This document shows, in pieces, positions 6,864 to 57,727 of a stretch of 64,000 nt of DNA (the first letter of the stretch is position 1; each line of letters begins with the position of its first letter). This stretch comes from Verrucomicrobiia bacterium (GTDB taxonomy: Bacteria; Verrucomicrobiota; Verrucomicrobiia; Limisphaerales; UBA11358). Location: the NCBI GenBank assembly GCA_036509895.1, contig DATCEV010000034.1:13437-77436 (forward strand), given 5' to 3'. The position numbers and the translations under genes were made by a program. The notes beneath the pieces were generated by a model. That model did not search any database, was not told the origin of the DNA, and saw only the letters and a list, made by a program, of their open reading frames with translations.

Positions 6864-8948
6864 TTATTTAATTTCGGAAAAAAACGATTTTGCTTGCGCT
6901 CGCGCCTGCCGGATCAAATCCAAATCCTCCGTCAGATTTCCAAAACGCAATTTCATCGCGCCGCTTTGCTCGCGGCCCAGCAATTCACCCGGCCCGCGCA
7001 ATTTCAAATCCACTTCGGCAATTTTGAAACCGTCGTTCGTTTCTTCCAAAATTTTCAGACGTTCTCGCGCCTCAAGATTTTTCACATCAGAAATTAAAAT
7101 GCAAAAACTCTCATGCGCGCCGCGCCCGATGCGCCCGCGCAACTGGTGCAACTGCGCCAAACCAAACATTTCTGAATTTTCGACCAGCATGATCGTCGCG
7201 TTCGGCACGTCCACGCCGACCTCGATGAGCGAAGTCGAAAGTAAAATCTGGATTTTGTTCGCGCGAAAATCGGCCATCACATTTTCCTTTTCCGCAGATT
7301 TCAAACGCCCGTGCAAAAGCCCGACACGAAATGGCGCGAACAATTTTTTAAGATTTTCAAATTCCGTCGTCACGGCCTTCAATTCTTTCGCGCCCGAATT
7401 TTCCACGCGCGGATAAACGACGAATGCCTGCCTGCCGGCGGCGAGTTTTTCGCGGATGAATTCCAGAACCTTCGGCAATTTTTCCGTCGCACGGACGAAT
7501 GTTTTTATTTTTCCACGACCGCCGGGCATTTCTTCAATCGTCGAAACGTCCAAATCGCCGTAAAGCGTCAGGCCGAGCGTGCGCGGAATCGGCGTCGCCG
7601 TCATCACGAGCAGGTGCGGATAATTTCCCTTGCGAACCAATTGCTCGCGCTGCGCCACGCCAAACTTGTGCTGCTCGTCAATTATCACTAGGCCAAGGTT
7701 GGATAATTGAAAATTTTCCGTGAAAAGCGCGTGTGTGCCGACGGTCAAAGTTGAAGGTTGAAGGTTGAAAGTTGAAGGTTTGTCCAAGCGACGCATTCCT
7801 GATTTTTCAACCTTCAACTTGCAACTTTCAACTTGCAACGAAGCGTCCTTCCGGCTGCCCGTTTGCAACAGAACTTTGACGCCCAAAGGTTCAAACCACT
7901 TCACAAAATTACGATGGTGCTGTTCCGCCAGGATTTCCGTCGGCGCCATGAGGGCGACGTTGAATCCGCTTTCAATCGCCATCAATGCGCTGCAAGCCGC
8001 GACCGCCGTTTTACCGGAACCGACATCGCCTTGCAACAATCGCCGCATCGGATGCGCGCCGCTCATGTCCGCGCGGATTTCGCGGAGAACTTTCGTTTGC
8101 GATTCGGTCAACTTGAAACCGAGCCGCGTCAAAAACGGTCTCATCAAGCGATTGTCGCCGCTGCACGGCAGCGCTTTGGCGTTCGTTTCAAATTTTTTTC
8201 GTCGCGATTGAATTTGCATTTGCAGTGAAACAAATTCTTCGAGCGCCAATTCTTTCCGCGCAATTTCCACATCCGAAATTTCTGCGGGAAAATGAATCAT
8301 ACGAATTGCTTCGCTGGTTGAAAGTTGAAGGTTGAAAGTTGAAGGTTTTGTGAGATCAACCGCGCCGGTTTTTTTAACCTGCAACTTGCAACTTTCAACC
8401 TGCAACATATTCGATTCCAACGTTCTCCAAATCAGTCCGCGCAGCCAGCGTTGCGGCAAACCTTCCGTGAGTGGATAAATCGGCGCGATGCGGTTGATGT
8501 GAATGAAACTTTCTTCGCCGGGTTCGATGACTTCGGTTTCGGGATGGTCCATCGTGCGCGGCTTGGTTTCCTTCAATTTTCCGAAGACGAAAACTTCATC
8601 GCCCATCGCGAAATAATTTTCCATGAACGGCAGATTCCACCAGCGGCAATGCAGTCGCGCCGAGCCGTCGTCCAAAATGATTTCAAAAACAGATTTGTTG
8701 CCGCCGCGAAAACGCTTGAGGCCGAGCGCGACAATTTTTCCGCGCGCGGTGAACGGCTCGTCTTTGGTGAGTTCGGAGATTTTGCGGAAATGCCGGCGGT
8801 CTTCGTAACGCTTGGGCCGGTGCAGCAGCAGATCTTCAATTGTGAAAATTTCCAGCCGCGCGAGTTGCGCCGCGCGTTCCGCGCCGACGCCCCAAAGCGA
8901 AGCGACGGGATTTTTCAGCGGCGAAATTTTAGTTTCCGGCGGCGACAT
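6864..8948 (-). CDS. recG: ATP-dependent DNA helicase RecG (with two in-frame repeat-derived segments)
   Basis: ORF 6864..8990, trimmed to MSPPETKISPLK. Motifs present: GDVGSGKT, MAPTEILAEQH, IIDEQHKFG, VMTATPIPRTL, STSLIEVGVDVPNAT, QLHQLRGRIGRG. Confidence 0.9.
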   Translation of the reverse strand: MSPPETKISPLKNPVASLWGVGAERAAQLARLEIFTIEDLLLHRPKRYEDRRHFRKISELTKDEPFTARGKIVALGLKRFRGGNKSVFEIILDDGSARLHCRWWNLPFMENYFAMGDEVFVFGKLKETKPRTMDHPETEVIEPGEESFIHINRIAPIYPLTEGLPQRWLRGLIWRTLESNMLQVESCKLQVKKTGAVDLTKPSTFNLQLSTSEAIRMIHFPAEISDVEIARKELALEEFVSLQMQIQSRRKKFETNAKALPCSGDNRLMRPFLTRLGFKLTESQTKVLREIRADMSGAHPMRRLLQGDVGSGKTAVAACSALMAIESGFNVALMAPTEILAEQHHRNFVKWFEPLGVKVLLQTGSRKDASLQVESCKLKVEKSGMRRLDKPSTFNLQPSTLTVGTHALFTENFQLSNLGLVIIDEQHKFGVAQREQLVRKGNYPHLLVMTATPIPRTLGLTLYGDLDVSTIEEMPGGRGKIKTFVRATEKLPKVLEFIREKLAAGRQAFVVYPRVENSGAKELKAVTTEFENLKKLFAPFRVGLLHGRLKSAEKENVMADFRANKIQILLSTSLIEVGVDVPNATIMLVENSEMFGLAQLHQLRGRIGRGAHESFCILISDVKNLEARERLKILEETNDGFKIAEVDLKLRGPGELLGREQSGAMKLRFGNLTEDLDLIRQARAQAKSFFSEIK
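7746..7839. repeat. Heptamer-stem hairpin repeat, copy inside recG (in frame)
   Basis: A run of GTTGAAG/GTTGAAA heptamers (7749-7780), a spacer, then the imperfect reverse complement ttcaaccttcaacttgcaactttcaacttgcaa. Translated as LQVESCKLKVEKSGMRRLDKPSTFNLQPSTL. Confidence 0.85.
8316..8406. repeat. Heptamer-stem hairpin repeat, second copy inside recG (in frame, same orientation)
   Basis: ggttgaaagttgaaggttgaaagttgaagg ... aacctgcaacttgcaactttcaacctgcaac. Translated as LQVESCKLQVKKTGAVDLTKPSTFNLQLSTS. Confidence 0.85.
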
Positions 8949-9014
8949 CGCCCGCACGATACAAACCTGGCGGAAGAGAATCAAACGCAACCCGCTTTGT
9001 CGCGGAGCGACGAT

Positions 9015-13065: not shown

Positions 13066-16000
13066 ATGACCAACAACCCAACACTGAAAACTAATGACCT
13101 CGGAAGCGCGCAAATTCAAATTTCCGCGCCGCCGAAACAGGGGCTTTACGACCCGCAATTCGAGCATGATGCCTGTGGCCTCGGTTTCGTCGTTCACATC
13201 AAAGGAAAAAAATCGCACCAGTTGGTCAGCGACGCGTTGAAAATTTTGGTGAACCTCGATCATCGCGGCGCGGTCGGGTGCGAACCGAACACGGGCGACG
13301 GCGCGGGCATTTTGATCCAGATCCCGCATGATTTTCTGGCTGCGCAAACGGCGAAGCTCGGTTTCAAACTTCCTGCTTTTGGCGAATACGGCGTCGGCAT
13401 GTTGTTTTTGCCAAAAGATTCCGCCGAACGCGAAGCGATCAAAAAAGAATTCGCCAAAATCGTTTCCGGCGAAGGCCAGAGCGTTCTGGGCTGGCGCGAC
13501 GTGCCGGTGGACAATTCCTCGCTCGGCAACGGCGCGAAAAATTCCGAGCCGTTCATGGCGCAGGTTTTTGTCGGCAAAAATTCTTCGCTGAAAGACGAAG
13601 CGGCCTTTGAAAGAAAACTGTTTGTCATCCGCAAGATCGCGGAGCAGAAAATCCGTTACGGCGGGAAAATTCCCGGCGGCAGATGGTTTTACGTTTCCAG
13701 CCTGTCGGCGCGCACGATCATTTACAAGGGCATGTTGATGTCCGAGCAGGTGGAAAAATATTACGCCGACCTCCGCGACGAAAGCGTGGTCACGGCGCTC
13801 GCGCTCGTGCATTCACGTTTCAGCACGAACACTTTTCCAAGCTGGGATCGCGCGCATCCAAATCGCTACATCGCGCACAACGGCGAAATCAACACGCTGC
13901 GCGGCAATGTAAATTGGATGCACGCGGCGCAGGCGAAGTTCAAATCAAAATTGTTCGGCGACGACATCAAAAAAATTGTTCCCGTCATCAACACGGACGG
14001 CAGCGACTCGGCGCAGTTCGACAATTGCGTGGAGCTTTTGACGCTGGCCGGTCGCGAATTGCCGCACGCGATGATGATGATGATTCCCGAGCCGTGGGAA
14101 AATCACGAAAGCATGGACGCCGAACGCCGCGCGTTTTACGAATTTCATTCGTGCCTGATGGAGCCGTGGGACGGCCCGGCTTCAATGGCGTTCACGGACG
14201 GAAAAATTATTGGCGCGTGCCTCGACCGAAATGGTTTGCGCCCGTCGCGTTATTATGTGACGAAAGATGATTTGGTTATCATGGCGTCGGAAGCGGGAGT
14301 TTTGCCCGTCGCGCCGGAACGCATTTTGCAGAAAGGGCGTTTGCAGCCGGGCCGGATGTTTCTCGTGGACATCGCGCAAGGGCGAATTGTCGCGGACGAA
14401 GAACTTAAGAAAAAATATGCGAGCGCGGAGCCGTATCAAAAATGGCTGGATGAACATCACGTGCTTTTGGAAAATTTGCCGGAGCCGTCGCAGGCAACGC
14501 AACCGGATCATCGCAAAATTTTGCAGCGACAACAGGCGTTCGGCTACACGTTTGAGGATTTGCGTTTGATTGTCGCGCCGATGGGCAAGGACGGCGTGCA
14601 ACCGCTTGGTTCGATGGGCACGGACACGCCGCTCGCGGTTTTGTCGAATAAGCCGCAGTTGCTTTACAATTATTTCAAACAACTGTTTGCGCAGGTGACG
14701 AATCCGCCGATTGATCCGATTCGCGAAGAAATTATTACTTCGACGGAAACGATGGTCGGCGCGCGCGGCGGTTTGCTTCAGCCGACGCCAGAAAGTTGTG
14801 CGCTGATAAAATTGAAACATCCGATTCTCACGAATGAGGAATTGGAAAAATTGCGGCACGTGGACGGCGGCGCGTTCAAATGCGTGACGCTGCCGATTTT
14901 GTTTGAGGGGAGCGCGCGCGTCTCGCGTGCAGATTCGGGCGTCGCGCCCGAATCTCTTCGTGCGCCGGACGGCGTGACCAGTGGTTTTCGGCGCGACGCC
15001 GAAAACCACACGCGGGACGCGTGTGCTCCCCAAAAAAATCTCGCAGCCGCTTTGGAAAAATTATTTTCCGAAGCGGACAAAGCCATTGCCGGCGGCGTGA
15101 ACATTTTGCTGTTGTCGGATCGCGGCATTTCGCCCGAACTCGCGCCGATTCCCGCGTTGCTCGCGGTTTCCGGTTTGCATCATCATTTGATTCGCAAAGG
15201 CACGCGCGGCAAAGTCGGCCTCGTGCTTGAATCCGGCGAACCACGCGAGGTGCATCATTTCGCGCTGCTCATCGGTTACGGTTGCAGCGCCATCAATCCG
15301 TATCTGGCGTTCGCGACGTTGGACGATTTGATTCAACAAGGTTTGCTCGTCAACACGGATCACAAAACGGCGCAGAAAAAATTCATCAAAGCCGTCGTCA
15401 AAGGCGTCGTCAAAACGATGGCCAAGATGGGCATCTCGACGATTCAAAGTTATCGCGGCGCGCAAATTTTTGAAGCCATCGGCCTCAACAGCGAAATCGT
15501 GGAAAAGTATTTTACCTGGACGCCGACGCGCATTGAAGGCGTCGGCCTCGACGTGATTGCGGAAGAAGCACTCGCGCGACATCGTCACGCGTTTCCAGAT
15601 CGTCCGGTCAATGGAGTTTTGGACGCGGGCGGCCAATATCAATGGCGCGACGGCGGCGAATTTCATTTGTTCAATCCGCAGACGATTCACAAATTACAAA
15701 ACGCGTGCCGCACGAATAACGAAAAAATTTATCGCGAGTATGCCGAGTTGATTAACAATCAGGCAAAAAATCTTTGCACGCTGCGCGGCTTGCTCGAATT
15801 CAAATTCGCGGAAAATCCCATTCCGATTGATGAAGTTGAATCCGTCGAAGAAATCGTGAAGCGTTTCAAAACCGGCGCGATGAGTTACGGTTCGATTTCC
15901 AAAGAAGCGCACGAAGCGCTGGCGATTGCGATGAATCGCATCGGCGGAAAATCCAACACCGGCGAAGGCGGCGAAGACCCGGCGCGTTACGTTCTCGAAC

Positions 16001-17820
16001 CAAACGGCGACTCGAAAAATTCCGCGATCAAACAAGTCGCGTCGGGACGTTTCGGCGTGACGAGTTATTATTTGACGCAGGCACGCGAGTTGCAAATCAA
16101 AATGGCGCAGGGCGCGAAACCCGGCGAAGGCGGAGAATTGCCCGGCAAAAAAGTTTATCCGCCGATTGCAAAAGTTCGCGGCACGACGGCGGGCGTCGGT
16201 CTGATTTCGCCGCCGCCGCATCACGACATTTATTCCATCGAAGATTTGGCGGAGTTGATTCACGATTTGAAAAATTCAAATCGCGACGCGCGCATCAGCG
16301 TAAAACTTGTGGCCGAAGTCGGCGTCGGCACCGTCGCGGCGGGCGTTGCCAAAGCGCACGCGGATGTGGTTTTGATTTCCGGTCACGACGGCGGAACCGG
16401 CGCGTCGCCGCTTTCATCCATCAAACACGCGGGCGGTCCGTGGGAATTGGGTTTGGCCGAAACGCACCAGACGCTCGTGCTGAATAATTTGCGCAGCCGC
16501 ATTTATGTCGAAGCTGACGGACAATTGAAAACTGGACGCGACGTTGCCGTCGCCGCGTTGCTCGGCGCGGAAGAATTTGGTTTTGCGACCGCGCCGCTCG
16601 TCGCGGTCGGCTGCATCATGATGCGCGTCTGCCATTTGAACACGTGTCCCGTCGGCATCGCGACGCAAGACCCGCGGTTGCGCGCGCGGTTCGCGGGCGG
16701 CGCGGACAACGTCGTGAATTTCATGCGCTTCGTCGCGGGCGAACTTCGCGAAATCATGGCTCGGCTCGGCTTCCGCAAATTGGAAGAAATGGTCGGGCGC
16801 ACGGATAAATTGATTCCGTGGCACGCGATTGAACATTGGAAAGCCAACGGACTCGACCTCACGCCGATTTTGCATCAGCCGGAAATGGGCGCGGACGTTG
16901 GACGTTTCCGTTCGCAAGATCAGGATCACGGCTTGGAAAAATCTTTGGATGTGACGAAACTTTTGGACATTTGCAAACCGGCGATTGAGCGCGGCGAAAA
17001 AGTGAAAGCCGAACTGCCGATTCGCAACGTCCATCGCGTTGTCGGCACAATCACCGGCAGCGAAATCACGAAAAAGCACGGCCCGAACGGATTGCCGGAA
17101 GACACCGTGTGGTTGAAATTCAACGGCAGCGCCGGGCAAAGTTTCGGCGCGTTCATTCCGCGCGGCATGACGCTCGAACTGGAAGGCGATGCGAACGATT
17201 ATTTCGGCAAAGGCTTGAGCGGCGGGAAAATAATTGTTTATCCGCCGCGCAATTCCACGTTCGTCGCCGAGGACAATATCATTATCGGCAACGTGGCGCT
17301 TTACGGCGCGACGGCGGGCGAAATGTTTGTATGCGGCATGGCGGGCGAACGCTTTGCTGTTCGCAATTCTGGCGTTGATGCGGTCGTCGAAGCCATCGGC
17401 GATCACGGCTGCGAATACATGACCGGCGGTCGCGTGATTGTTTTGGGAAAGACCGGACGCAATTTTGCCGCGGGCATGAGCGGCGGCATCGCGTATGTTT
17501 TGGATGAAGCCGGCGATTTCAAAAATCATTGCAACATGGAATTGGTCGGCCTCGAAAAACTTTCGGACGCGGACGAAATCGAAGAAGTCTGGAAATTGAT
17601 CCAGCGTCATCAAACTTACACGCAAAGCGAACGCGCCGCGAAAATTCTCGGCGACTGGAAAAATTTCATTCCGAAATTCATCAAAGTTTTGCCAAAAGAT
17701 TACGCGCGCGTTTTGCAATCGTTGAAAAAAGCGCAATCGCAAGGCTTGAGCGGTGACGACGCAATCATGGTCGCGTTCGAGGAAAACATCCGCGACGTCG
17801 CTCGCGTCGGCGGCGGATAA
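13066..17820 (+). CDS. gltB: Glutamate synthase large subunit (with in-frame palindromic insertion)
   Basis: A 1584-aa ORF. It has the N-terminal amidotransferase start ...HDACGLGF, an FMN/Fe-S central domain (...GEGGEDP..., ...[16 protein letters not shown]...) and the C-terminal GXGXG domain. Confidence 0.95.
14907..15031. repeat. Nested GC-rich palindromic element inside gltB (in frame)
   Basis: Outer stem ggggagcgcgcgcgtctcgcgtg / cacgcgggacgcgtgtgctcccc. Inner hairpins are gattcgggcgtcgcgcccgaatc (14932-14954) and ggttttcggcgcgacgccgaaaacc (14983-15007). Translated as [42 protein letters not shown]. Confidence 0.85.
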
Positions 17821-17822
17821 GC

Positions 17823-17968
17823 AATCCGCAGATTACGCAGATGAACGCAGATTTTCAGAAATAAACTGAACTGAATGAATTTAAGAAAATTCAAAACCGC
17901 AATTATGACCGTTGCGAAAGCAAAAAAAAAACGCCTTTAATCTGCGTTCATCTGTGAAATTTGCGGAC
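17823..17968. repeat. Long inverted repeat immediately downstream of the gltB stop (ATCTGCG-type family)
   Basis: Arms are aatccgcagattacgcagatgaacgcagatt (17823-17853) and aatctgcgttcatctgtgaaatttgcggac (17939-17968). They are about 30 bp with a few mismatches, around an 85-nt loop. Confidence 0.75.
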
Positions 17969-18412
17969 AACAATAATCGTGACCCGCAAACCTACGCCAT
18001 CATTGGCGCGGCGATGGAAGTCCATCGTCAATTGGGTCATGGTTTTCTGGAAGCGGTTTATCAGGAAGCCTTGGCAATTGAGTTGGCAGCGCGTGAAATT
18101 CGATTCCAGCGGGAAGTCCCGCTACCGGTAGAATACAAAGGTCAACGATTGTTGTGTTCGTATCGCGCTGACTTCGTTTGCTTCGACGAAGTGATTGTGG
18201 AATTAAAAGCCATCACCCAATTGACCGGCATTGATGAAGCACAAACAATCAATGAACTCAAAGCAACGAATTTGCATCGCGCGCTATTGATTAACTTTGG
18301 CGCACCAAGCTTGGAATATAAGCGTCTTGTCTTTAATCTGCGTGAATCGGCGCAATCTGCGGATGAAAATTCTGCGGATGAAATAAAAAACGTTAACCTG
18401 ATAGGAGCATAA
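17954..18412 (+). CDS. GxxExxY-family protein (PD-(D/E)XK nuclease-like fold)
   Basis: ...[51 protein letters not shown]...[15 protein letters not shown]... contains the G-x-x-E-x-x-Y motif (GFLEAVY) and a D...ELK nuclease-like core. The start is uncertain (GTG at 17954 or TTG at 17912). The C-terminal tail is repeat-derived. Confidence 0.8.
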
Positions 18413-18413
18413 C

Positions 18414-19970
18414 TTGGGCAAGCCAACCGGATTTTTAGATTTTAATCGCGAACTGCCGCTGGATCGTTCGGCTATCGAACGCATCCGCGACTGGAACGAA
18501 TTTCATCTGCACATGTCAGACGCCGACCTGAAAAAGCAGGGCGCGCGCTGCATGGATTGCGGCATTCCGTTCTGCCAGCACGGCCAGCTTGTCAGCGGCA
18601 TGGCCAGCGGCTGCCCGATTCACAATCTCATTCCCGAATGGAACGATCTGGTGTATCGCGGACTTTGGAAGGAAGCGCTCGAACGTCTTCACAAGACGAA
18701 TAATTTTCCCGAATTCACCGGGCGCGTTTGTCCCGCGCCATGCGAAGGCTCATGCGTTTTGGGAATCAACGCGCCTCCGGTCACGATCAAGAATATAGAA
18801 CAGGCCATCGCCGATCACGGCTGGGCGAACAATTGGATCGTTCCCGAAATTCCGAAAAAGCGGACGGGGAAAAAAGTCGCGGTCATCGGTTCCGGTCCCG
18901 CCGGACTTTCTGCCGCCGCGCAATTAAATCGCGCTGGCCATCTCGTCACGGTTTTCGAGCGCGCGGATCGCCCCGGCGGTTTGCTCATGTATGGCATTCC
19001 CAACATGAAGCTCGACAAAAACGAAGTTGTGCTGCGGCGAATTAAAGTGCTCGAAGCGGAAGGAATTCAATTTGTTTGCAATACGGAAGTAGTGGCACAG
19101 GCGTCTCGCCTGTGTGATAAGTCACAACAAGAAACGCCAACTCACAGGCAAGATGCCTGTGCCACTAAAAATTATCCGGCGGAAAAATTATTGAAAGAAT
19201 TTGACGCTGTGATTTTGGCGACGGGCGCGACCAAACCGCGCGATTTATCCGTTCCCGGACGCGAATTGAAAGGCATTCACTTTGCGATGGATTTTCTCAC
19301 CGCGAACACGAAAACAATTTTGGACAATCACAAAAACGGAAATTTTATTGACGCAACCGGCAAGGATGTGATCGTCATCGGCGGCGGCGATACCGGAACG
19401 GATTGCGTCGGCACTTCGATGCGGCATGGCTGCAAAAGTTTGGTGCAAGCGGAAATTTTGCCGATGCCGCCGCCTGAACGCGCGAAGGATAATCCGTGGC
19501 CCGAATGGCCGAAGGTTTATAAAATGGATTACGGTCAGGAAGAAGCCGCCGCGAAATTCGGCGCCGATCCGCGCACTTATTTGACGACCGCGACGAAATT
19601 TGAGGGCGACGCGCATGATCATGTCAAAGCCGTTCATCTCGTGCAAATCGAATGGACGCAAAACGACAAAGGCCAGTTCATTCCGAAACACGTTCCCGGA
19701 ACGGAAAAAGTTTTGCCCGCACAACTCGTTTTGCTGGCGATGGGTTTTCTCGGACCGGAACAGCCGTTGCTTGAAGCGCTCGGCATCGAACGCGACGCGC
19801 GCTCAAACGCAAAAGCCGAATTTGAAAAATACGCGACAAATCTTCCGAACGTTTTTGCCTGCGGCGATTGTCGTCGCGGCCAAAGTTTGGTCGTCTGGGC
19901 ATTCAACGAAGGTCGCGGCGCGGCGCGCGAGTGCGACCGTTTCCTCATGGGCGCAACGGATTTGCCGTGA
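18414..19970 (+). CDS. gltD: Glutamate synthase small subunit (NADPH), TTG start, with in-frame palindromic insertion
   Basis: [15 protein letters not shown]..., the Fe-S Cys motifs ([18 protein letters not shown]), and the dinucleotide folds [14 protein letters not shown] and [13 protein letters not shown]. Confidence 0.95.
19091..19166. repeat. GTGGCACAGGC-type palindromic element inside gltD (in frame)
   Basis: Outer stem agtggcacaggc / gcctgtgccact. Inner hairpins are cacaggcgtctcgcctgtg and cacaggcaagatgcctgtg. Translated as [25 protein letters not shown]. Confidence 0.85.
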
Positions 19971-55940: not shown

Positions 55941-56372
55941 ATGTTCAAAAAAATTTTAGTTGCGCTTGAAAACAGTCCGGCGGACGAAACGATGTTGCCG
56001 CAAATCGCCGCACTGGCAAAAAAACTTGCCTCGGAACTTTTATTTTTGCACGTCGCCGACGGCTGGGTCGCGCGCAATTTCAATCAACTCAAGCTTGCCG
56101 AGTCCGAAGAAATGAAAAGCGACCGCGAGTATTTGGAAAAAGCCGCCGACAAAATTCGCGCCGAAGGAATTTCAGTTTCCACCATGCTCGCGCTCGGCAG
56201 TCCGCCGACCGAAATTTTGAAAGTCGCCGATGCTGAACGGTGCAGTTTGATCGCGATGACCAGCCACGGCCATCGTTTGTTCGGCGACATTTTTCACGGC
56301 AGCACCATCAACGAAGTCCGTCACAACACGCACATTCCAATTCTCCTCGTGCGCGCGAAAAAAATAAAGTAG
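55941..56372 (+). CDS. Universal stress protein (UspA family)
   Basis: MFKKILVALENSPADE...LIAMTSHGHRLFGDIFHGSTINEVRHNTHIPILLV. Confidence 0.85.
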   Translation: MFKKILVALENSPADETMLPQIAALAKKLASELLFLHVADGWVARNFNQLKLAESEEMKSDREYLEKAADKIRAEGISVSTMLALGSPPTEILKVADAERCSLIAMTSHGHRLFGDIFHGSTINEVRHNTHIPILLVRAKKIK

Positions 56373-56431
56373 CGCAGGCATCTTGCCTGCGTTTTTATTT
56401 AAAAATTTCGCAGGCTGGATGCCTGCGCTAC
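56369..56431. terminator. Palindromic element forming two convergent terminator hairpins; it contains both flanking stop codons
   Basis: gTAGcgcaggcatcttgcctgcg-tttttatttaaaaattt-cgcaggctggatgcctgcgCTAc. Hairpin 56373-56391 plus a T-run serves usp. Hairpin 56409-56427 plus a T-run on the minus strand serves the VOC gene. Confidence 0.55.
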
Positions 56432-56823
56432 TTTAATTGAGAATCTTTTGGCCGTTCCACCAGATGCAACAAATTTCCTTCGCAATCTTCAAAAAATAAA
56501 ACGCGCCCGCCGCCAGCAGCCGGACGAATTTCTTCCGAAAATTTTAGGCCGCGTTTTTCCAATTCACTTTTCGCCCCGTCCAACGAATCCACGCGCAACG
56601 CGATGTGCCGAAAACCGGCGAGCTTGTTGTTGCCGCGATTTTCCGGCGCGCCGTCCGCCGCGTAAATTTCAAACCAGCCGCCGCCCGGCAACGCAATCAA
56701 ACACGTTGGCGGATTCTGTCCGTTATTAAAAATTTCACGCGCGTCCAATTTTTTTTCATACCAATTTTTCAGTGCAACCGGATTTGGCGACGGAATCGCA
56801 ATGTGTTCAATGGAAATATTCAT
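56428..56823 (-). CDS. VOC-family (glyoxalase/bleomycin-resistance fold) protein
   Basis: ORF trimmed to MNISIEHIAIPSPNPVALKNWY...GFRHIALRVDSLD...FFEDCEGNLLHLVE. Confidence 0.8.
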   Translation of the reverse strand: MNISIEHIAIPSPNPVALKNWYEKKLDAREIFNNGQNPPTCLIALPGGGWFEIYAADGAPENRGNNKLAGFRHIALRVDSLDGAKSELEKRGLKFSEEIRPAAGGGRVLFFEDCEGNLLHLVERPKDSQLK

Positions 56824-56910
56824 GGCTGAATTAAAAATTAAAAATGCAAAATTAAAAACTAAAATCGTGTTTGACCGCAAAAGGTTTTGTAACGTTTGCT
56901 AAATAAATTT

Positions 56911-57552
56911 ATGAACCTGGAAAACTTTTTGAAACAGCGGCTCGTTTGCGTCGCGGTGATTGACAATGTTGACGATGCGATTCCGCTGGCCGAAGCGTTG
57001 CTCGCGGGCGGATTGAATGTAATCGAAGTTACATTTCGCACTGCGGGTGCGGCGGACGCGATTGCGCGTATTCGCAAAAATGTTCCGCAAATGAGCGTCG
57101 GCGCAGGAACGTTGCTGACGCCGGACAACGTAAAACAAGCCGTGGACGCGGGCGCGCAATTTGGCGTTTCGCCCGGCTTGAACGAATCCGTTTCGCGCGC
57201 GGCGCACGAAAATAAATTGCCGCTGTTTCCCGGCGTCATCACGCCCAGCGAAGTCATGCGCGCGCTGGAACTCGGCTGGAAAACATTGAAATTTTTTCCG
57301 TCGGAAACTTTTGGCGGCGTGAACGCGCTCAAAGCGCTCGCCGGACCGTTCGGTCATACCGGCGTAAAATTTATTCCGACCGGCGGCATTTCGGCGGCGA
57401 CGTTGCAAAATTATTTGGCGATGCCGCAAGTCGCGGCAGTTGGCGGTTCGTGGATGGCGGAAAAAAAATTGATTGCGGAAAAAAATTGGAAAAAAATTTC
57501 CGTGCTTACGGCGGAAGCAATGAAAATAATTTCTGTGCCGCAAACAAAATAA
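56911..57552 (+). CDS. eda: KDPG / KHG aldolase
   Basis: IEVTFRTAGAADAI, VGAGTLL, FGVSPG, PGV.TPSE, LKFFP, and the KF.PTGG pattern. Confidence 0.9.
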   Translation: MNLENFLKQRLVCVAVIDNVDDAIPLAEALLAGGLNVIEVTFRTAGAADAIARIRKNVPQMSVGAGTLLTPDNVKQAVDAGAQFGVSPGLNESVSRAAHENKLPLFPGVITPSEVMRALELGWKTLKFFPSETFGGVNALKALAGPFGHTGVKFIPTGGISAATLQNYLAMPQVAAVGGSWMAEKKLIAEKNWKKISVLTAEAMKIISVPQTK

Positions 57553-57572: not shown

Positions 57573-57727
57573 GGTGGCACAGGCCTCTGGCCTGTTGTTT
57601 CGGGCGTCGCGCCCGAAACCGGCGAGGCGCGAACGTCTGACTTGGCAGCACACGCAAAACCCAGCGTATGTCCTCAAACGAAATCCGGCGGGACGCCGGA
57701 TTTGACAGGCGAGACGCCTGTGCCACC
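57573..57727. repeat. Nested GTGGCACAGGC-type palindromic element between the convergent eda and GH genes
   Basis: Outer stem ggtggcacaggc / gcctgtgccacc. Inner hairpins are gtttcgggcgtcgcgcccgaaac (57597-57619), aaatccggcgggacgccggattt (57681-57703) and acaggcgagacgcctgt. Confidence 0.85.

Follow-up and report, generated by a model that had tools for sequence, protein, structure and literature searches.

An in-frame palindrome in a glutamate synthase gene of Verrucomicrobiota: probably a REPIN-like repeat tolerated in a variable loop

What is a 125-nt nested palindrome doing inside the reading frame of gltB, the gene for the large subunit of glutamate synthase, and where did it come from? 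The question is raised by a stretch of 64,000 nt from a Verrucomicrobiia bacterium (assembly GCA_036509895.1, contig DATCEV010000034.1, positions 13,437 to 77,436; from a peat metagenome, contig ena:ERZ27294387:k141_242314), referred to as a whole as the window, in which gltB is read without interruption across the palindrome. In our analysis the segment is very probably a non-autonomous doublet of repetitive extragenic palindromic (REP) units, similar to a REPIN (REP doublet forming a hairpin), from a Verrucomicrobiota family associated with REP-associated tyrosine transposases (RAYTs; IS200-like, HUH/Y1) and tolerated in a variable loop of GltB. The host gene, the element and its parts are as follows:

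13066..17820, plus strand: gltB, glutamate synthase large subunit, intact host gene (1584 aa; open reading frame (ORF), translation, Pfam)
14907..15031, plus strand: composite palindromic element, a REP doublet, REPIN-like (125 nt; codons 14908-15033 = G615-Q656)
14907..14930, plus strand: left outer REP, tag GGGGAGC plus hairpin GCGCGCG-TCT-CGCGTGC at 14914-14930 (hairpin scan; unit seen in 143 half-elements of other genomes)
14931..14955, plus strand: left inner hairpin AGATTCGGGCG-TCG-CGCCCGAATCT, perfect 11-bp stem (exact 23-mer in 7 GTDB species representatives)
14960..14978, plus strand: small central spacer hairpin GUGCGCC-GGAC-GGCGU.AC (minimum-free-energy (MFE) structure)
14981..15009, plus strand: right inner hairpin GTGGTTTTCGGCG-CGA-CGCCGAAAACCAC, perfect 13-bp stem, mirroring the left inner hairpin (hairpin scan)
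15007..15031, plus strand: right outer REP, inverted, hairpin CACACGCG-GGA-CGCGTGTG plus tag GCTCCCC (hairpin scan)

The bases at 14907-15031 are as an earlier note on this DNA had described them: an outer stem with three mismatches encloses two perfect hairpins, at 14931-14955 (11-bp stem) and 14981-15009 (13-bp stem). Read directly, the outer arms GGGGAGCGCGCGCGTCTCGCGTG and CACGCGGGACGCGTGTGCTCCCC are complementary at all but three positions, and all three of these are G-T wobbles on the plus strand; the longer arms 14902-14948 and 14990-15036 are 79% complementary. In each half of the element the GGGGAGC tag is joined by two hairpins, an outer and an inner one, both built on the same GCG-NCN-CGC core, and the halves are mirrored round a short spacer. 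REP units are short (20-40 nt) imperfect palindromes forming a hairpin, and the units here are of that size: 24-25 nt with 6-8 bp stems for the outer ones, 25-29 nt with 11-13 bp stems for the inner ones. Being inverted, the two units combine into a larger hairpin, as expected of a doublet. Folding at the RNA level, which the earlier note had proposed as a check, gives -97.4 kcal/mol for 14897-15041 as compared with -59.1 +/- 4.0 for 200 dinucleotide shuffles (z = -9.5; 0 of 200 as good), and the MFE structure pairs 14907-14928 with 15010-15031 in a 22-bp outer helix. The ends of the repeat are fixed by metagenome contigs, in which the depth climbs over the element and unrelated flanks start exactly before 14907 and after 15030.

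The in-frame read-through that had been reported is found as well. ORF 13066-17820 (plus strand) is open throughout the palindrome, which accounts for 42 residues of a surrounding translation of 61; the 1584-residue product has all four glutamate-synthase Pfam domains complete, with the central domain occupying 322 residues on a 277-position profile. The best solved relative of this GltB is Bacillus subtilis GltA (7mfm), and the alignment to it breaks between residues 590 and 591 and resumes 42 query residues on. The alignment of orthologues, suggested earlier as a way of delimiting the insertion, comprises 120 homologues that are 81-89% identical and come without exception from metagenome bins of Verrucomicrobiota; 102 of these have 26 residues from GGAFKC to AAL, including a 5-residue linker such as AAGGA, and the window protein has 63, a net gain of about 37 residues over the ordinary linker. 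The search for an empty site in a relative was equally successful: at the DNA level the nearest relative (P0003, locus L089) reads ...ttgtttgaa-acgaaaaacgcttctgccgca-aaaaatct..., and the junctions in the window read ...ttgtttgag-element-aaaaaaatct..., from which it follows that the element replaced the short linker and was not added beside it. The gltB copy thus went into a short variable linker in the central domain of GltB, located between the strand ending LPILFE and the helix starting KNLxAAL, and took the place of part of it. In an AlphaFold2 model of residues 470-830 (31 homologues), which is poor overall (mean predicted local distance difference test score, pLDDT, 45.8) and was used for the local contrast between insert and flanks, the insert has a pLDDT below 50 and no secondary structure and the flanking strand and helix score 76-91.

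These alignments, together with the occurrence of the same architecture in intergenic DNA and in other Verrucomicrobiota, support the earlier claim that the segment is an insertion of repeat DNA and not GltB sequence. Had it belonged to the enzyme, unrelated orthologues should carry homologous residues at this position; Bacillus, Azospirillum and Synechocystis have nothing there, while several relatives do have residues at the site, in the form of palindromic repeats of the same superfamily. That the 42 residues are instead a lineage-specific functional or exapted GltB loop, with the palindromic DNA incidental to it, is highly improbable. Such a loop would agree with the intact reading frame and with a related strain in other metagenomes that has an element ending in the same last bases, but the DNA modules are found again between genes and within unrelated genes, the nearest relatives are without the loop, and the insert is predicted to be unstructured. 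An intein was considered and rejected, since inteins have at least about 130 residues, with Cys, Ser or Thr at the first position and again after a C-terminal Asn, and the insert has 42, starts with Gly and ends in ...APQ followed by Lys. An intron is ruled out by size, by the junction residues and by an Rfam scan of the whole window (introns, riboswitches, known repeats), which gave 0 matches at gathering score; a tRNA scan returned none.

Many metagenome contigs end at repeats of this family, which breaks short-read assemblies, and a chimeric join through the repeat would therefore be one way to account for the locus. We give this hardly any credence. Over both junctions, two assemblies of the sample are identical in every base (in the second, the Logan assembly of the same run, a 624-nt contig spans 14650-15273 with 0 differences and even depth), no joint skipping the gltB element was found in the Logan assembly of the run containing the locus, the frame is preserved, and analogous inserts occur at the same codon in other lineages.

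The element belongs to a widespread family. Its exact 23-nt inner hairpin recurs, always within the same architecture, in 7 species representatives of GTDB (6 with the label Verrucomicrobiota), and a degenerate pattern of the outer unit (GGGAGCGCNCNCGNCNCGNGNGC) occurs in at least 120 stretches of GTDB representatives, mostly from Verrucomicrobiota and from several orders. The 143 half-elements collected from these stretches share an invariant GGGGAGCGC, the outer hairpin, a joint of 1-3 nt and the inner hairpin. The stem of the inner hairpin varies freely in sequence yet remains paired. In a consensus fold of 56 half-elements, 8 of 13 pairs keep their pairing after two-sided changes (15-28 sequences per pair), and within a half-element the loop of the outer hairpin co-varies with that of the inner one, both starting with the same base in 64 of 83 where shuffles average 26.6 and reach at most 41; as the copies are related, both are to be read as counts, not as probabilities. 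The co-variation of loops within half-elements (L095-L214 and the window) would fit lineage-specific recognition motifs. Only a minority of copies is intragenic: when at least 100 stop-free codons are required on both sides, long open frames hold about 6 of the 50 paired elements that could be tested. Earlier settings of this census were dropped, because strict two-arm pairing missed most elements and a limit of +/-50 open codons was too lax in GC-rich DNA. In a search for a target motif the flank logo had a weak TCCG before the tag as its only signal; it is absent at the gltB copy and is probably part of longer arms.

The link to a transposase comes from relatives. When the published RAYTs (PMC3733652, additional file 5) were compared by tblastn with the 1.34 Mb of collected DNA, matches were found in three loci only (L103, L122 and L168), all of which had been retrieved through the REP pattern. 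In each of them the RAYT is bracketed by the same half-elements as make up the gltB copy, in inverted orientation. The Pfam Y1_Tnp scores (cut-off 23 bits) are 25.9 for L103 and 32.4 for L122, with L168 just below at 22.1. This RAYT has 209 database relatives, most of them about 205 residues in length; those with a name are called 'REP element-mobilizing transposase RayT'. A RAYT gene flanked by the same REPs is thus present in these three loci, and REP-encoded termini are found in 97 of 113 RAYT homologues. Since the same half-elements flank RAYT genes in relatives, the gltB copy is built like a cassette without its transposase, and on this comparison of sequences it looks like a transposase-less REPIN derivative.

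The RAYT genes also suggest why the repeat is compatible with a coding sequence. A peptide GSARASRA.SGASPE precedes the catalytic core in those 97 of 113 homologues (P0121-P0240), and its mirror peptide APKTAREARALP follows the core in 68; the flanking REPs therefore belong to the RAYT reading frame. A cassette without start and stop codons of its own was considered and is rejected for the majority, in which the ORFs have a short conserved Met-containing leader before the 5' REP and a stop 2-5 codons past the 3' REP. Two of the three frames of the gltB element are open, and the frame GS[AT]R[VA][SP]R...[T]R[DG]AC[AS]P is used by every clear intragenic copy with one exception. The frame read in gltB, GSAR.SRA ... 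TRDACAP, is that of the flanking REPs in most RAYT genes of the clade. We infer a long-standing coding constraint that would keep the repeat stop-free and encoding a small, polar and flexible peptide.

Whole cassettes also lie in frame in host genes. In L103 (132-4664, minus strand) a REP-RAYT-REP cassette is in frame in a 1510-residue MetH, between the homocysteine S-methyltransferase and pterin-binding domains, with all other domains complete and a second, plain REP doublet further on; in L122 (1-1587, minus strand) and L168 (416-2524) the cassette is in frame in AlaS, at two different sites. Several database fragments carry the same fusions, and the host frames are open across the whole cassette. 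No report of REP-RAYT-REP cassettes in frame inside metH or alaS was found in the searched literature.

If the element is a RAYT-associated doublet, its spread and persistence could be pictured as follows. By analogy with known RAYT and IS200/IS605 enzymes, a RAYT would mobilise it in trans, acting on single-stranded hairpin DNA. A copy in a gene would then persist when it alters the length by a net multiple of three and the frame used is stop-free, and when the Gly/Ser/Ala/Arg/Asp-rich peptide falls in a loop that tolerates length variation; the coding frame shared with the RAYT termini would offer a reason for the repeat's compatibility with coding sequence.

Several points weigh against this interpretation. 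The tag of the gltB copy is GGAG, inside the conserved GGGGAGC, and not the canonical unpaired GTAG. No RAYT gene was found in the 64-kb window by tblastn, and the proposed link to a cognate transposase rests on genomes other than the source; that the insert is translated and neutral for the enzyme is presumed. There is no target-site duplication at the gltB copy (flanks ...tttgag / aaaaaaatc), nor at the copy in the neighbouring gltD gene described below (...gaagta / taaaaatt, where the TA belongs to the palindrome), and the filled sites in both genes are without some linker nucleotides of the empty sites, so that the chemistry of integration is not readable from the junctions. Finally, the same GltB and GltD sites are occupied in scattered lineages, unlike what a non-specific transposon would predict. 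The absence of duplications also bears on another origin, a transposable element of the miniature inverted-repeat type (MITE) derived from a DDE-type insertion sequence, in which the outer arms would be terminal inverted repeats and the enzyme a conventional transposase, not a RAYT. The length of 125 nt and the long inverted termini do resemble MITEs, but neither intragenic copy has the duplication, each arm forms a local hairpin of its own and has a conserved tag, which is how REPs are built, and in three genomes Y1 transposase genes lie between identical half-elements; we consider a MITE very unlikely.

The same loops are used more than once. Among the 120 GltB homologues, 11 others carry inserts or a remnant at the linker: one type of insert in P0013, P0050 and P0070, a second in P0016, P0019 and P0020, and a GTGG-tagged dimer in P0018 and P0025; P0015 (L094) retains only the first 16 nt of an element, and P0069 (+6 residues) and P0096 (+4) show small length deviations. 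The nearest neighbours (95-97% identity) of each insert-bearing lineage have the ordinary linker. At the gltD site, L092 has an element of a different type and L093 one of the window's type, and L089, L091 and L094 are empty. No identity peak round the site was found between L090 and L093, which share an element type, and a recent transfer of alleles is therefore unsupported. The remnant in L094 indicates that decay by internal deletion occurs. The sharing of sites reflects either repeated insertion or an old insertion with loss and turnover. Further short inserts are seen elsewhere in GltB, after residue 200 in P0077 (NSGAGFQPAVDRQDACPT, resembling a REP-encoded peptide) and after residue 172 in P0050 (GCDASSQKGERGA). 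The identities to the window are 94% in GltD and 84% in GltB for L091, and 87% and 89%, respectively, for L089, a reversal that may reflect recombination within the gltBD operon.

That several lineages have strongly folding elements (-50 to -101 kcal/mol) at one and the same inter-domain position could also point to a selected cis-regulatory RNA element in the gltBD mRNA, serving as a translational pause between domains or as an entry site for RNase III or RNase E. The very stable fold of the gltB copy, with its 22-bp outer helix and all three arm mismatches being G-U on the sense strand, fits such a role. However, most close relatives, including the nearest (L089), lack an element, those present at the site differ in sequence and size, the family is mostly intergenic (about 6 of the 50 testable copies in long open frames), and three wobbles out of three have a one-in-eight chance of arising anyway. 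A regulatory element is, on balance, improbable. As to gltB transcripts in RNA runs, only three metatranscriptomes share a few words with the locus, and their contigs match other repeat copies or divergent gltB homologues and not this gene. Judged from sequence, the present role of the element in gltB is most likely none, the repeat being tolerated selfish DNA; a side effect of the very stable predicted mRNA structure on translation or decay is possible.

The gltB copy has siblings in the window. The claim that its inner module recurs at 57597-57619 is borne out, the 19-mer TTCGGGCGTCGCGCCCGAA being exact at 57599-57617; with up to 3 mismatches this 19-mer has 5 matches in the window (both strands), against 0.15 expected. 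Hairpins with the GCG-NCN-CGC core number 11 in the window and 0.2 in shuffles, and all of them lie inside four elements, two of which are intragenic. The three besides the gltB copy are:

19090..19167, plus strand: sibling REP dimer in gltD, tag TAGTGG, hairpins CACAGGCG-TCT-CGCCTGTG and CACAGGCA-AGA-TGCCTGTG (GTGG-tagged, in frame)
56362..56438, no strand assigned: GTAG-tagged plain REP dimer, intergenic, upstream of the eda-like ORF 56896-57552 (-49 kcal/mol)
57573..57727, no strand assigned: nested element, intergenic, with two inner hairpins inside a GTGG-tagged outer REP pair, downstream of the eda-like ORF (-94 kcal/mol)

The tags of these siblings are GTAG at 56369 and GTGG at 19092 and 57574. 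The dimer in gltD (ORF 18414-19970) encodes 25 residues and takes the place of a Gly between NTEV and KNYPAEK, with a net gain of 24 codons. The nested element at 57573-57727 follows the same plan as the gltB copy, and its left inner hairpin holds the exact 19-mer. The eda-like ORF is thus bracketed by two REP elements, one a plain GTAG dimer and the other a nested four-hairpin element.

A different palindromic family is represented by two in-frame copies in recG (ORF 6864-8990, minus strand), at 7747-7839 and 8313-8406. They are made of GTTGAAG/GTTGAAA heptamers and their complement, encode LQVESCKLQV...PSTFNLQ[LP]ST, and fall on gaps in the alignment with RecG of T. maritima at both positions. 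With such palindromes in gltB, gltD and recG, in-frame palindromes are therefore common in the source genome, as they are in Opitutus terrae. The earlier note had seen the palindrome in GltB correctly; its REP/REPIN-RAYT type, the precedent in the phylum and the in-frame palindromes of gltD and recG had escaped it. gltB and gltD are separated by a small PDDEXK_3 gene (17912-18412), and a CGCAGAT-rich inverted repeat of 29 nt (17825-17853 / 17939-17967) brackets it. L091 and L093 have the gene at the same place, L089, L092 and L094 do not, and because of this variable presence it looks mobile.

For annotation, the consequence is that the 42 extra residues of GltB, the 24-26 of GltD and the two segments of RecG should be read as repeat-encoded and not as features of the enzymes; repeats of this kind also disrupt short-read assemblies of these genomes. 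Few systems are known in which essential proteins carry palindromic mobile DNA, and to these the locus adds a well-delimited case, with an empty site, a decayed footprint and alternative occupants; it also draws attention to a RAYT clade in which the REPs are read within the transposase frame. A wider proposal is that the REP/RAYT family as a whole has adapted to life in coding sequence, with REPs within the RAYT, cassettes in linkers of alaS and metH, and loops re-used by subfamilies. We hold this to be tentative and rather doubtful. If it were true, the transposase could be produced within a housekeeping protein, as the alaS and metH cassettes would allow, and the re-use of loops (GltB after LPILFE, GltD after NTEV) would imply either a site preference or seamless loss and regain. 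Such a lifestyle would provide a testable model of how hairpin repeats spread without killing genes, and would show how proteins gain disordered loop insertions.

The closest known system is that of Opitutus terrae, for which a published list has about 70 GTAG-REP insertions inside genes (Di Nocera et al. 2013, BMC Genomics 14:522, PMC3733652). There, REPs and their dimers lie in frame in housekeeping genes and encode 7-50 residues, and GTGG occurs as a degenerate tag (PMC3733652). The likeness to our elements includes the phylum, hairpin units with a 5' tag, inverted dimers and in-frame location in genes, and the O. terrae peptides HGRDARAT, VARASRP and GTGVPPV nearly match the gltD insert of the window and the insert at the GltB site of P0018 (PMC3733652). 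In contrast to the O. terrae REPs, the gltB copy has the tag GGAG in place of GTAG or GTGG, and an inner hairpin in each half, which makes it a 125-nt structure of four to five hairpins; gltB and gltD are absent from the published O. terrae insertion list (PMC3733652). REPIN/RAYT systems, in which hairpin-forming REP doublets go with a cognate tyrosine transposase (Nunvar 2010; Bertels and Rainey 2011, cited in PMC3733652), share with the present family the inverted doublet, stems kept by compensatory change and a RAYT bracketed by the same REPs. They differ from this clade, in which the flanking REPs lie inside the RAYT frame and a minority of cassettes and doublets are in frame in host genes, and for which we infer mobility. 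The Rickettsia palindromic elements (RPEs) measure 100-150 bp and are inserted in frame into numerous essential genes, which they do not inactivate (Ogata et al. 2000, cited in PMC3733652). They belong to an unrelated host lineage, are CGTC-tagged and have no known dedicated transposase (PMC3733652), and the resemblance is a functional one, that of tolerated coding insertions. With these precedents in the phylum and in Rickettsia, intragenic palindromes of this kind are known already, and the gltB element adds one more case.

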